From: Eledone cirrhosa | Lineage: Eukaryota | Reading direction: 5' to 3' | Assembly (NCBI GenBank): GCA_964016885.1 | Contig: OZ024740.1 | Coordinates: 283,464,001-283,528,000, forward strand | Length of the DNA: 64,000 nucleotides | Shown: positions 4,343 to 58,647 of the stretch, piece after piece | Numbering within the stretch: position 1 is the stretch's first letter | Layout: each line of letters opens with the position of its first letter | Translations under genes and position numbers: made by a program | The notes under the pieces: model-generated | What the model saw: only the letters and a program-made list of their open reading frames with translations | What the model was told of the DNA's origin: nothing | Database searches by the model: none

Positions 4343-4691
4343 TCCAAAAGTTTTATTTAAAATTGTTGGGATACAACAAGTAAATATTTTTATAACTGAT
4401 ATAAAGCACTCGACAAGTATTTGGAGTAGATATACGATATTAATAAATGGAAACTATATTTATAAAACCATATTTATTTCATTATACATATTTCAGGGAT
4501 ACCAAATTAAATTATGGTATGCCTTCATCAGACAAATGTTAAAAGGGTACGTCAAAGCTTATTTGTAAAACTGTTATATATTGTATTTTGTCTGATGAAA
4601 GCATACCATAATTTAATTTGGTATCCCTGAAATATGTATAATGAAATAAATATGGTTTTATAAATATAGTTTCCATTTATTAATATCGTAT
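4343..4691 (-). mobile_element. Fold-back Penelope-like pLTR element (family B)
   Basis: 105-bp inverted arms 4432-4536 / 4587-4691 (1 mismatch seen), unpaired tail 4343-4431 ending at (TA)n; homologous to 19779-19918 and 31549-31990. Confidence 0.8.
4584..4648 (+). ncRNA. Type I hammerhead motif (mirror copy on minus strand in left arm)
   Basis: TATTTTGT-CTGATGA-stem II (ATACCA/TGGTAT)-GAAA-TATGTA-TA-ATGAAATA; stem I pairs with two G-U wobbles. Confidence 0.75.
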
Positions 4692-4699
4692 GGTTATAT

Positions 4700-4975
4700 A
4701 TATTTTTTTTGTTCTTCTAACTTTGATTTTGTACCTAATTATGTATGGTTAACTATATGTCTAGCCAATTTCTACAGGTTATTAGAAAAACTAGGTAAAT
4801 ACTTTGTAGCTATGAGTCGCGGATAAGAAGCTATATCATTTATCTATTGTTTCTTCATAAGTATATTTTAAACTTATAGCCTCGTTTAAATGATTTTTTG
4901 CATGGTTGATTTCTGCTGACTGGGAGAAGAAATATTGTATATATTTTACCTAATGATTTTATGGGCTTACTTTAT
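4700..4975 (-). pseudogene. Possible highly decayed Penelope-like RT thumb/linker coding remnant
   Basis: Broken minus-strand translation IYNISS... and KYLPSFSNNL*KLARH loosely resembles the PLE thumb/linker; lies between pLTR-like elements. Weak. Confidence 0.25.
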
Positions 4976-5019
4976 ATATATATATATATATATATATATA
5001 TATATATATATATATATAT

Positions 5020-5412
5020 ATAGTGAAAGATTGAAGAATAACATGGTCGGCTGTACAAAAAGGGTTTTATTTCTAGTATTAACAATTGTTTCATTGATCA
5101 GGTGAGTTTAAAGTATTCCGATGATTTGATCAGAGGTAAACACTGTATTTAAGGTCGAGCGATTAGCGGCCTGATCAATGAAACAATTGTTAATACTAGA
5201 AATAAAACCCTTTTTGTACAGCCGACCATGTTATTCTTCAATCTTTCACTATTATTACTCCAAGTATAATCTGCATAGTAATTCTCGCGAACTCGCTACC
5301 TAACTATGGAAACCTCTTGTTGAGTCAAACAACGCCGCACGTTAAAACTATCCACGACACAGGGTACTCACAATCTCTAACTGGATTACCTATAACGATA
5401 ACTTGTTATCCC
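5020..5412 (+). mobile_element. Fold-back Penelope-like pLTR element (family C)
   Basis: 83-bp perfect inverted arms 5020-5102 / 5170-5252, unpaired tail to 5412, (TA)n on both sides. Confidence 0.8.
5112..5197 (+). ncRNA. Type I hammerhead motif with long stem II loop
   Basis: AGTATT-CCGATGA-T-TTGATCAG..CTGATCAA-T-GAAAC-AATT-GTT-AATACT: 6-bp stem I, 8-bp stem II, palindromic stem III loop. Confidence 0.78.
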
Positions 5413-5427
5413 ATATATATATATAAT

Positions 5428-5837
5428 ATTAAGGATACTATTTATGGTTATGTATATACTAAAACTTTTTAAAGTTATGTATATTTTAAACCCTAAACAG
5501 TGAAGGTCAGTAATTTATTACTACCTTATTACCAGTAAGATAAATAGCTCAATGTAATAACATCAGTTGTTCTACAGAGCAGTTATATAGAATTCACAAG
5601 AACTTTAAGCGGGTAAGTAAGAGTATTATGGTGGTTGTAGTGGTAAGGTTTTTTTTGTATATAATACAATTTTTTGTATATAATAAAATTTTTTGTATAT
5701 AATAAAATTTTTTGTATATAATAACATTTTTTGTATATAATAAAATTTTTTGTATATAATAAAATACAAAAAATACAAAAATTACCTTACCACTACAACC
5801 ACCATAATACTCTTACTTACCCGCTTAAAGTGCTTGT
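5428..5837 (-). mobile_element. Fold-back pLTR-like element (family D) with a 19-bp tandem array as spacer
   Basis: 54-bp arms 5596-5649 / 5784-5837; spacer about 6x TTTTTGTATATAATAAAAT; tail homologous to 46765-46910, which carries a hammerhead. Confidence 0.7.
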
Positions 5838-5984
5838 ATTACATGTAACATCCTGCCACACAATAATCATATATAAATGAGACACACTTGCATGCCCTAC
5901 GTGTAACTAACGCATACACTAACTACTCCATCTGACTAACAAACTATCCTCTTGCATTATCTGTGTTAACTGCCGAATGTATTT

Positions 5985-6075
5985 TAATTTTGTTTTAATT
6001 TTGTTTTAATTTTAATTTTAATTTTAATTTTAATTTTAATTTTAATTTTGATTTTGATTTTGATTTTGAATTTGA
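5985..6075. repeat. (TTTTAA)n / (TTTTGA)n hexamer repeat
   Basis: Direct reading. Confidence 0.9.
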
Positions 6076-55337: not shown

Positions 55338-55522
55338 TAATTTTTTCTACTTTTGGCACAAGGCCAGCAATTACCCAGTACATTACTGGTACTTTATTTT
55401 ATCGACCCCGTAAGGATGAAAGGCAAAGTTAACTCCAGCGGGATTTGAAGGGATTTAAAGGGCCGTAACTCTTTGCTGCAAAGCATGGCGTCCGACCCTC
55501 TACCGATACTGCCAATCCACCA
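55338..55522 (-). mobile_element. S1 SINE
   Basis: Family match. Confidence 0.85.
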
Positions 55523-56146
55523 ATGAATGAATATTACATAATTTATCTACTAAATTTCGTGGTTGTTGATTAAATATATTTTGTTTATTTAAAGATTCAC
55601 TTCTTTAAAATTTCTGAAATGTCAACACTTCCGGTTGGCCATCGCTTAACTAAACATACTAATTTTCTGTCACTAATTTTCTCCTAATGCAGTTTATGTA
55701 TAATATCGTCTTTTTTTAATGTATCATGGATTACGTTACTGATTAAATAAGACAGTGTAACGCAGTCTTCGTTCAATTTCTATGTATTATATATTGTCAA
55801 TTACGATTTTATTTGATGTATATACCTGCGTATAATATCAATATGCACACTACACATGCTAGCAGAAAGCCAGCCGAGAGAGGTGGTTTCTCTGCTAGTA
55901 GTAATAATAATAAATGTGAGGACCAAAACCTGAAGACGGCTCGATAAGGATAATATATATATCAAATATAATAAATGTGTATATATATATATATATATAT
56001 ATATATATATATATATATATATATATATATAAATGTAAATTGAGTTTTACGAATATTAATAATCGCATTCGATTCGTTTGCAATTATGCAAACAAGCCTC
56101 ATTCTTGCTCTCATGTAGAGCGAAATTTTCTTTTATATATATATAT

Positions 56147-56335
56147 ATAAGAAATAAGAAAGATGGTTTCATTCTTACATCCCTATGAATAGGAATGTAC
56201 GAATAAAACCGTATTCCTTGTTTATTATAATAAACCTCTGGATGAATAAAAACCGTAGAGTGCTTCACATATGTTAAGAAAAAGTCGGCAGATTTTTAAT
56301 CAACCAATTTTCTTAAATTGAATAAATAAATATAT
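56147..56335 (+). mobile_element. Diverged fold-back pLTR-like element
   Basis: Imperfect palindrome centred at 56187-56188, tail hairpin CCTC-TGG..CCG-TA-GAGT at 56235-56261, (TA)n flanks. Confidence 0.6.
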
Positions 56336-56689
56336 ATATAGACAGACATATACGTAGCCGATCATTCCGAAGCACTGGGGGGGGGGATTAATATAAAGAG
56401 TATTGTGTTTCACAATAGCATATAAAATAAGATGAAGACCCTCAAGGAAGGAAAATAACTTCCTTCTAGTAACTTCTTTTTACGTCTGTATCTTCACCCT
56501 ATTTTATAAGCTATTTTATAGCATCTCCGGGCATGAGCACACCACTCTTTATATTAACTATATACATATATATATATATATATATATATATATGTGTGTG
56601 TGGGGGGGGGGGGCGTGTGTGTATTTGTCTTTATGTCTATATTTTTATTTATCTATCTTACTACTACAAATACTTTGACGCTAAGCTCC

Positions 56690-57050
56690 GCAAGATACAG
56701 ACTGCGCAGCTACATGAGATATTTTTCTCGATCACCAACAGCAGAGTTTAAAGAGCAAAGATCAAGGCCAGTCCATAGGTTGACATTATCAAACCATCAT
56801 TTTCAGCCAATCTTCCTTCCATGCAGAACCTACTCACACCACGAGTTGATCTCTTTTTATATGCCCGTATAGTTTGAGTACTCTTGACTGAGCAATTGAT
56901 GTAATTGATCTAAGTCTGGTAATGTTGAGCCGCTCACTGATACAGATACGGTCGCTGAGCCGCTTGCTCCGTCATAAGTTTGTTGATGTATGTTCTGGAA
57001 TGTAGAGAGCTTCTGAAATGACCTTGTCGTCTAATTAACACAGTCAAGAA
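56690..57050 (-). pseudogene. Ancient RTE-like C-terminal remnant
   Basis: RSITSIAQSRVLKLYGHIK..VLHG resembles I..RRLKWFGHV..ILxG. Confidence 0.5.
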
Positions 57051-58361
57051 CATATAACACAACTGGCAGGGTGTAAGTATCGAAGATCTATTTTTCATTT
57101 TTCCAATTGTATTCTCGTCTGAACAATCATACTCCCATCCATCTAGTATTTGTGATATCTGTATAACTGTAAATTTAAAGAGAATGTTTCCTTATAAAGA
57201 CATGTGTAAGTGCGTACATATACCTAGATATATGTGTAGGCGTGTATATATGTTTATATATACGTGCGATTGCATGTTTATGCTTATGTATATATTTATA
57301 TATATATGTGAGAGTGTATATATATATAATTTATATTTGTTCGTGGGGGAATGAATGAATATATAAATGAATATAGATACATATTCGCACATATTTATGT
57401 ATACATTTTTAGATATAAACTCATATATTAGAAATTATTTTACTTGTACGTTCAGTCTCCAGCATGTCTATTTATTAATTTTTTTTTTTTTTTTTTTTGA
57501 CAAGATCAAATAGAACTGTCAATAAAATATTTTTGATAAGCACCTTTAAATTTTGACAAGAGAATTTTATTCGCTACTGGAGTAAAACCTCTAGATGGTA
57601 AATACCTCTATCACACATTTACTCTATTTGACCTGACCTTGTCCTGGGTATTGTTTCACTTTATCCACACCTGACATTCTCCTGTAACCCCTTTGTATTT
57701 CCTGGTTCTTGCATCTACACAACCCCTCCCACTAAGTCATATTTTAACGAATTATTTCATATAACGAATCATTTCATATAACGAATCATTCATCTTACTA
57801 AAGTCCGGATAAATTAGTATTGTCAACGAAATTTGAAAGTCACCATTATGTTATTGCCTCTTATCAAGATTGCGTATTTCTCTCGGTTCTGCCACCCACT
57901 GGAACTGTCGAGAATGTATAGGATTCATCGGCTGAATAGCCTAATATGAACACCGAAACAATTGTAGATTGTTTTTCTCTGCCACAGCTAAAACAAAAGG
58001 ATGACGTTAGTCGTCTAGAGCACACATGGGTTTATGAGGCTGTTTGCTTGCAAACGAATCGAATATTATTGTAATATCATTATTACTATTCACTCACAAA
58101 TGCATTTAGGTACCCACGATTTTAGAGCGAAAACAAATTTTGATTTTAATTTTCGGCAAAGGCAGCCGTAAAATCGCTCGATTTGCAAATTAGGCTAACC
58201 AACCAATGTACACTTTAGAGAATACTATATATTATCGACAGTTCCAGTGGGTGGCAGAAACAAGAGAAATACACAATCTTGATAAGGGGCAATAACTCCC
58301 AAACAATTGTAGATTGTTTTTCTCACCGCTAGAAGAAAAGGATGGTGTTAGGCGTCTAAAG

Positions 58362-58440
58362 CAGGCATGTCAAACTGAAGGTCTCCCTAGGGCCACATGG
58401 ATCACATATGTGTTGTCTGAGGGCCACACACGACAACTAA
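58362..58440 (+). mobile_element. hAT-Charlie-like terminal fragment
   Basis: CAGGCATGTCAAAC..GGGCCACAT preceded by TCTAAAG (Charlie-like target). Confidence 0.5.
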
Positions 58441-58457
58441 TTGCTCACATTACAACT

Positions 58458-58647
58458 AAGGAGATGTGGTAAGGTACCAGATGGACCATAACGCACCAAA
58501 GTACTCAATACTTAGGGTAGTAGAGTGGGTAATAGGAACGAGTAGGACCCCGACGGCTGAGCTCAAGCCGTTTCGACGGCTAATTCAGTCCAGAATTAGC
58601 CGTCGAAACAGCTTGAGCTCAGCCGCCGGGGTCCTACTCGTTCCTAT
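58458..58647 (-). mobile_element. Fold-back pLTR-like element (family H)
   Basis: 55-bp arms 58532-58586 / 58593-58647; tail hairpin 58503-58526. Confidence 0.78.

Follow-up and report, generated by a model that had tools for sequence, protein, structure and literature searches.

A 64-kb window of the 3.0-Gb Eledone cirrhosa genome (contig OZ024740.1, positions 283,464,001–283,528,000; "the window" throughout) is rich in (TA)n tracts and holds many lopsided palindromes, pairs of inverted arms of which one carries an unpaired tail. We detected these pairs by comparing the window with itself (blastn, local inverted matches) and by reading the sequence directly. An initial annotation had drawn this fold-back layout at 11 loci; an inverted pair with a one-sided tail is present at all of them, and two had been mis-drawn. 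What was given at 5428 as arms spanning 5596–5837 is the centre of a single ~830-bp insertion (5428–6259), and the element placed at 56147 resolves into a single-arm fragment (56149–56330) and a palindrome (56345–56560) that was found only by reading, the other 10 of the 11 loci each giving a local inverted blastn match. The pairs fall into nine sequence families, in line with the eight or more annotated earlier: A (5020), B (4343 and 31549), C (5428), D (17441), E (17900 and 58458), F (19266), G (19474), H (28190) and I (56345). We use +1 for a fixed inner site and p for the fixed outer point of the tail-less arm; the leader of the parent element reads, in order, +1, hammerhead ribozyme motif, p and tail, followed by the ATG. 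The insertions in the window are as follows.

4344..4697, minus strand: family B pair; tail-bearing arm 4344–4536 (tail 4344–4431), tail-less arm 4544–4697; hammerhead core at 4531 (minus)
5020..5412, plus strand: family A pair; inverted arm 5020–5113 ending at p, sense unit 5112–5412 from exactly +1; hammerhead core CCGATGA at 5118; tail of 160 nt
5428..6259, minus strand: family C complex pair; tail piece 5428–5602, jump into the 3' untranslated region (UTR) at 5596–5669; long tail-less arm 5773–6259 (plus) ending at p
17441..17847, plus strand: family D pair; inverted arm 17441–17594, sense unit 17592–17847; hammerheads at 17657 (plus) and 17539 (minus); parent a Hydra-type Penelope-like element (PLE)
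17900..18093, minus strand: family E pair; tail-bearing arm 17900–18031, tail-less arm 18029–18093 from +1 to p; no complete hammerhead
19266..19452, plus strand: family F pair; inverted arm 19266–19321 reaching +1, sense unit 19322–19452; hammerhead core at 19322 and at 19315 (minus)
19474..19755, plus strand: family G pair; inverted arm 19474–19541, sense unit 19542–19755 from +1; U3-A8 hammerhead variant at 19584
19768..19913, plus strand: family B single-arm copy; tail present, inverted partner absent
28190..28670, plus strand: family H pair, old (~73–81% to relatives); long tail-less inverted arm 28190–28482 reaching the putative +1, short tail-bearing unit 28508–28670; CTGATGA at 28457 (minus)
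31552..31990, plus strand: family B pair; inverted arm 31552–31731 (+9 to p), sense unit 31731–31990 (+20 to tail end)
56149..56330, plus strand: fragment with one arm, from another family of pseudo-long terminal repeat (pLTR) type; tail motif like that of B and D
56345..56560, plus strand: family I pair, a truncated copy lacking the tRNA-Thr-like head; tail-bearing arm on the left, 56345–56460 (minus), tail-less arm 56471–56558 ending at p
58454..58647, minus strand: family E pair; tail-bearing arm 58454–58586, tail-less arm 58583–58647 from +1 to p

The lopsided palindromes are genuine: a real 200-kb stretch elsewhere in the genome held 29 close inverted repeats, as compared to 0 after its non-repetitive bases were shuffled with simple repeats kept. 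A first look, with 40 candidates scored per family, gave lower bounds on the number of candidate copies of at least 2769 (A), 1739 (B), 2119 (C), 74 (D), 1161 (E), 815 (F), 78 (G), 660 (H) and 1758 (I). A strict automatic rule, requiring one end on TA and a 30–250-nt tail at the other, recovered 35 repeats in 600 kb from five other chromosomes (10/200, 12/100, 10/100, 0/100 and 3/100 kb); it keeps 5 window loci and therefore undercounts. The annotated density of one per 5 kb is thus a manual count for the window, to be set beside 0 to 12 per 100 kb elsewhere under the strict filter, and scaling from the strict-rule density puts the genome-wide load at roughly 100,000 copies. Among 40 strict-rule repeats, 18 belong to families B, D, E, F, A or G, and the remainder form at least 12 further clusters. 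The arms, described earlier as mostly near-identical, typically differ by 2–5%, with identities down to ~72–80% in old copies such as 28195 and differences there of up to 28%. The (TA)n flanks reported on both sides are likewise the rule, with (TA)3 adjoining 169/180 tail ends and 98/111 inverted-arm ends in six families; exceptions in the window are (GA)n at 19266 and the tail end of 58458, which has none.

Extending copies in the 5' direction led to parents encoding a reverse transcriptase (RT) and a GIY-YIG endonuclease (EN), as the earlier proposal of a Penelope-like origin had anticipated. Extended copies of A, B, D and E reach a Hydra-type EN or RT, either in sense upstream or as the inverted arm. 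For family B, a GIY-YIG-type EN forms the inverted arm in one locus (L002) and lies in sense 1.2 kb upstream in two others (L004, L022); parent coding sequence of family E is linked at L282; and for family G the inverted arm of L289 holds a GIY-YIG EN together with G's own 3' UTR. The mini-elements are leaders, from start site to tail, of PLEs that bear an open reading frame (ORF), paired head-to-head with an inverted copy that ends at p. The annotation had called them non-coding, which is true of the short copies, but an ORF is present in longer ones. Families A, B, D, E and F have a tail-start motif in common, ACTC a few nt past p and GAGT(G/A)C(T/C)TT 20–30 nt further on, in sequences that are otherwise unrelated, and this motif is a candidate protein-binding or priming signal.

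Family D gives the most complete view of a parent. Its full element runs through the start region, hammerhead, p (+177), tail (to +260), ~55–80 nt, ATG, ORF, UTR and pLTR; the pLTR and tail stand directly ahead of the ATG, as in L417 and other loci. Full-length copies may have an inverted arm attached, at +9 (L424) or +216 (L420). An intact ORF of 809 amino acids (L439) carries the motifs QFDI, MGxSDS, YRDD and Y-x-C...Y-x-G, as well as SDKTN, LRWT (T for the K of RWK), CNCRIKNKC, CNICLNE and CLH, with no CxxC in the GIY core and no CCHH. The protein has 103 homologues, mostly of ~700 amino acids and with uninformative names; among 56 aligned homologues, 4 match PF01541 (GIY-YIG) and 2 match PF00078 (RVT_1) in Pfam, and a profile of the ORF family matches a retron RT at E 0.012. 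The combination of LRWT, DKT, CxCX5C, CxxC before E and CxH, without CCHH, fits the Hydra clade, and CxC...C linkers recur in the A, B and E parents; by these motifs, rather than by tree placement, the parents of A, B, D and E match Hydra-clade PLEs. A Neptune label considered for them was rejected, as the motifs fit the Hydra definition. Six pLTRs with a period of ~3,657 nt lie in tandem at L435–L436 (38.07–38.09 Mb, another chromosome), where at least five full-length family D units follow one another and three with long frames end at the same shifted position; this array is a possible source locus for read-through RNA.

The parent of family G is of another kind. In L289 it shows KCGRSNCGTC and YAIKCKGC...YIG in broken reading frames, with no RT recovered there; its EN appears to carry Neptune/Nematis-type fingers (CX4CxxC, with CxxC in the GIY-YIG core). 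Separately, a second PLE type with a 710-amino-acid frame, a CX4CxxC linker and CxxC in the GIY-YIG core occurs at L034:4899–7028 (minus strand), inside the 3' UTR of a family B element, and has relatives in L287 and L288.

To describe the ends of the insertions, we used 212 de-duplicated loci from seven families, counting an inverted arm when it lay no more than 45 nt from the sense unit. An inverted arm is present at 111 of the 212; 98 of these 111 stop no more than 8 nt from p, and 3 include the tail. Off-target hits (census DNA and flanks of other families) have the same two outer ends, and in raw reads from three runs of restriction-site-associated DNA sequencing (RAD-seq), (TA)n is attached at p of family E in 2,600–3,000 reads per run. 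The inner ends pile up at +1: 159 of 297 fall within −5 to +11 (15.8 expected if uniform), as do 94 of 168 at the same site in the off-target set (9.6 expected), and the effect is strong in E, F and G and clear in A and D. Most short copies thus end at one fixed, start-like site rather than being randomly 5'-truncated as was first supposed. In an independent contig run, family E depth drops ~23-fold across +1; this step comes from the contig run alone, a sharp read end in the RAD-seq data (L145:1628) lying at an AATT site and being taken as a library cut. Because a TATA-like box stands at −30 in B, F and G and at about −31 in A, and initiator-like sequence (TCAT) occurs in D and E, we infer that +1 is the transcription start site. 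Moreover, 14 of 25 exact ends have an untemplated G beside +1 (p 0.016), consistent with the RNA cap having been copied.

By contrast with the two fixed outer ends, the junctions between arms vary. Copies are unlike in the length of their arms and spacers, as had been noted for the two family B pairs, the joins show small losses, microhomology or added bases, and in contigs from an independent sample arms are joined to each other at many positions. These variable junctions bear out the earlier view that the palindrome is made at insertion and not inherited as the terminal inverted repeat (TIR) of a miniature inverted-repeat transposable element (MITE). An apparent fixed, inherited palindrome in E was an artefact of a join-spanning query; a tail-only query gave varied joins. 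Four copies (L108, L116, L122 and L112) carry independent insertions of a short interspersed element (SINE) into the same ATT stretch, 69 nt above the family A +1, and a supposed SINE-headed subfamily of A with its join at −69 was ruled out as a SINE insertion hot spot within the UTR.

Hammerheads, which had been ascribed to the whole population, occur in A, B, C, D, F and G and are likely in H. Type I motifs with a palindromic helix III are found in A, B, D and F (core CUGAUGA or CCGAUGA); the C core is CCGAAGA, A and C share a U4C core, and the G core is a U3-A8 covariant variant. Short E copies lack the core, beginning inside the helix II loop downstream of it, while the core of the E parent is degenerate, and no hammerhead was found in family I. 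Of seven window hits to a hammerhead descriptor, six fall in A, B, D, F and G loci, as compared to 0–2 in shuffled sequence, and the cores are conserved across copies; cleavage is predicted. An Rfam scan gave no hammerhead among the best 150 hits listed, only below-threshold microRNA models on simple repeats, and four hammerheads folded as single strands scored no better than shuffled sequences (z ~−1), as expected for dimer-type motifs and hence uninformative. We also considered hammerhead-cleaved RNA as template and rejected it: the cleavage site (+121 to +124) is the starting point of 9 of 30 D copies, but a rare search word favours such joins, microhomologies of 3–4 nt suffice for them, and the effect is absent from tail-only B (0/30 within 5 nt of +138) and from off-target D. 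A pLTR-like piece with one arm, set in (TA)n at 3727–3922 of the window, opens with a minimal hammerhead that has CTGATGA, a short helix II and a palindromic helix III; its relatives recur in the flanks of L006, L180 and L221.

The relative lengths of the arms bear on how such pairs form. The annotation had proposed a hairpin-primed second strand, and fold-back of a tail-primed cDNA can give only a tail-less arm contained within its partner. Among 111 pairs, the tail-less arm is the longer in 31, the tail-bearing arm in 18, and the two are similar in 62; the tail-less arm reaches kilobase scale in L002, L279 and L437, and in L437 it comprises a whole 3.8-kb element. Hairpin priming is therefore disfavoured. 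In family E, moreover, the arms of 4 of 34 pairs are discordant in haplotype (L066, L078 and L083 among them), and in three of the four the mismatch covers two linked sites, in combinations also present as haplotypes elsewhere among the copies. Arm mismatches at +123 in D were left unused as evidence of mixed arms, as they lie in a hypermutable repeat and share the same search bias.

Together, the two-way arm asymmetry, the mixed haplotypes and the pile-up at +1 favour two separately primed cDNAs over hairpin priming. We think it probable that each pair arises from two cDNAs, each primed on its own at the target, that run off the 5' end of the RNA and are joined to each other. The element's enzyme would nick both target strands, and two cDNAs would be primed separately at two fixed RNA sites, p and the tail end. 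That both arms would be target-primed is drawn from in vitro experiments with a different PLE, in which a Poseidon-clade protein cleaved the two target strands, extended each of them and began reverse transcription at two sites bounding the tail (Frangieh 2024, PMC11167929). Priming in the 5' pLTR copy would lead to run-off at the capped 5' end and thus to short mini-elements, and priming in the 3' pLTR copy to long, ORF-bearing products. Most pairs would derive from one RNA, or from RNAs of one source locus, and a minority from two different RNAs; the two cDNA 3' ends would then be joined with small losses, microhomology or added bases. Two recent key papers describe the origin of the inverted repeats and one-sided tail of PLEs as open (PMC8557442, PMC11167929).

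A number of results weigh against this account or its premises. The search sets were the best-scoring 20–44 copies per family, picked by likeness to queries most of which extended into the arm; the pile-up at +1 is weak in off-target B (2/21), and family C shows none at a guessed +1 (1/13, and 0/7 off-target). Families D and E have no canonical TATA, and the untemplated-G count is confounded by microhomology, the C in F being derivable from the right arm. No ORF link emerged for C, F and H in 3, 3 and 2 extended loci, respectively, nor for I, and a Pfam search with the 809-amino-acid ORF itself gave no match. Finally, 30 of the 34 E pairs are concordant, as compared to roughly one half if arms were paired at random, and by permutation the arms of A, D, E and G are more alike than chance, as self-copying also predicts.

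These last two results are what would be expected if, with the same PLE origin, a single cDNA folded back and primed itself, the endonuclease resolved the product at p, and the centre was later trimmed or deleted. Repair of palindromes is known to delete their centre in some cases, 62 of the 111 pairs are nearly symmetric, and the 31549 copy (31552–31990) carries a rare core mutation, to CTCATGA, that its two arms share. Self-priming has been proposed for PLEs (Arkhipova 2013, PMC3846280), and the available text of PMC8557442 speaks of "EN-mediated resolution". However, it needs kilobase deletions where the tail-less arm consists of a complete element or of part of an ORF without partner sequence (L002, L437), leaves the two-site haplotype mismatches (L066, L078, L083) unexplained without added gene conversion, and sits poorly with in vitro RT starts at both tail ends (PMC11167929); we regard it as unlikely. 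The short copies might instead derive from a distinct class of small non-autonomous RNAs, either monomers of retrozyme type or fragments produced by hammerhead cleavage, and not from run-off on full-length mRNA. Short copies exceed long ones ~23 to 1 in family E, a short transcript begun at the same site in solo pLTRs would be indistinguishable, and non-autonomous PLE derivatives have been published (bioRxiv 10.64898/2026.07.22.740005; MRC1 in PMC8557442). Nonetheless, the 5' ends lie at +1, which precedes the hammerhead (or, in E, falls within its loop), and not at the cleavage site, where the apparent D excess is explained by search bias and microhomology; no tandem monomers running from hammerhead to hammerhead were seen for A–H; and most short copies lack the −30 promoter and hence could not restart at +1. 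With A–H being leaders of longer elements, the retrozyme-like monomers of the annotation find a partial likeness only in family I, which is ORF-less and tandem-forming and has no hammerhead, and we consider a small-RNA origin very improbable. Least credible of all are fixed-TIR DNA transposons (MITEs) or fold-back assembly artefacts, despite the long near-perfect inverted repeats and a 31549 junction for which no spanning read or contig was shown: junctions and arms differ between and within copies as described above, arm-to-arm joins occur in independent short-read contigs and the same ends in raw reads, and the elements are linked to RT and GIY-YIG ORFs with no link to a DDE transposase.

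Family I stands apart from the others. Its copies are 83–91% alike, as are the nearest relatives of its tail; they comprise a ~270-bp unit with A and B boxes, form short tandems and have two 3' ends ~48 nt apart. The majority sequence folds as tRNA-Thr (ARAGORN, lowered threshold), while single copies gave no ARAGORN or Rfam hit (0/20 and 0/6). Head-to-head pairs occur at 15 of 46 loci and tail-to-tail pairs at none; in a set chosen by the head, 5 of 29 are paired, as compared to 10 of 377 hits for an abundant ATT-tailed control SINE in which such pairs are rare (p 0.002). Like tRNA-derived SINEs, family I has a tRNA cloverleaf with A and B boxes; unlike them, it shows no poly(A), simple-repeat tail or LINE-type 3' end (LINE, long interspersed element), and its ends and head-to-head pairs are PLE-like. 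Non-LTR retrozymes are also ORF-less and tandem-forming, but family I lacks a hammerhead and so is not one. We lean towards reading it as a tRNA-headed non-coding RNA moved in trans by PLE machinery, a candidate SINE. Two results speak the other way: only 10 of 66 p- or tail-ends adjoin (TA)3, and no autonomous partner was found among the PLE parents examined (best match E 0.47). Published non-autonomous PLE derivatives are not tRNA-headed in the excerpts available (PMC7761336, PMC6685494, bioRxiv 10.64898/2026.07.22.740005), and we found no tRNA-headed SINE assigned to a PLE in a literature search that did not cover Repbase, Dfam or subscription papers.

Taken as one, these two proposals make a wider claim that we hold only tentatively, judging it somewhat less likely to be right than wrong: that PLEs mass-produce a strong-stop-like by-product, in which a dimer primes two cDNAs on opposite strands, sometimes from two RNAs, to leave ~100,000 palindromes running from transcription start to tail, and that a tRNA-Thr-headed Pol III RNA (family I) is a SINE moved by the PLE machinery. 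Retroviral minus-strand strong-stop DNA is a short cDNA from a site near the RNA 5' end to the cap; the short run to the cap is alike here, without a tRNA primer or strand transfer. In LINE-1 twin priming, two primers on opposite target strands yield an inversion; in the mini-elements, by contrast, both arms hold the same 3' sequence.

The basic insertion layout is already published PLE structure (PMC8557442, PMC2377424). The Hydra clade comprises C-terminal EN+ PLEs for which (TA)n targets and hammerheads have been noted (Craig et al. 2021, PMC8557442); our families share with it DKT, the CxCX5C linker, CxxC before E, CxH after N, the absence of CCHH, a single ORF of ~800 amino acids, an RW motif, a hammerhead in the pLTR, (TA)n targets, and tandem and inverted insertions with a tail. 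They differ in having LRWT for RWK, a unit of ~3.66 kb (published as "generally <3 kb") and tails of 60–170 nt rather than 30–40 nt, and where that account gives few families outside cnidarians, at least four here reach thousands of copies. Penelope/Poseidon elements (D. virilis Penelope, A. vaga Pen2a, Anolis PAc) likewise have an inverted 5' pLTR, an optional one-sided tail, a junction palindrome, a start site within the pLTR, two RT start sites bounding the tail, and AT-rich targets (PMC3846280, PMC2377424, PMC11167929). In those accounts, however, the inverted arm usually caps a long element, whereas most insertions here are two leaders only, and the D. virilis Penelope promoter is TATA-less and internal, whereas four families here have a TATA box at −30. 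Minimal hammerheads of PLEs include opposite-strand motif pairs 100–700 bp apart and a U3-A8 core in Schistosoma PLEs (Cervera and de la Peña 2014, PMC4209133); the type I fold, palindromic helix III, long helix II, U3-A8 core (family G) and opposite-strand pairs recur here, and the U4C core in A and C and the coreless short E copies set ours apart.

The families are thus new members of the PLEs, four of them Hydra-type, although the supplements of PMC8557442 may already include some. New here are the pile-up at +1, the two-way arm asymmetry, the mixed-haplotype arms and the candidate tRNA-headed passenger; the literature searched yielded no published tally of inner ends at the start site or of arm asymmetry. 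With many young short pairs, junction statistics can separate two-site priming from self-priming and mark each family's likely start site without RNA. Hydra-type PLEs, known from few families, emerge as a large source of palindromes and hammerhead motifs, which repeat finders would label MITEs, and if family I is confirmed, PLEs would join LINEs as movers of tRNA-derived SINEs.

The window holds further repeats. Older relatives of families G and C, 73–77% diverged and without a clear inverted partner, lie at 10559–10897, 18831–18953 and 46753–47057. Two copies of the abundant ATT-tailed SINE lie head-to-head at 59472–59671, and the inverted match between them extends ~20 nt beyond the SINE end. 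Palindromic elements at 58680–59036 and 57850–58296, one of them split by a SINE piece, have inverted ends and no tail or TA flank, and may be true MITEs. An 869-amino-acid open frame at 42237–44846 (minus strand) encodes a LINE reverse transcriptase with C-terminal zinc fingers, which we take to be of RTE type, and broken LINE copies with a restriction-like endonuclease motif, presumably CRE/R4-like, occur at 23556–24529, 33370–36334, 44604–45546 and 61029–62139.

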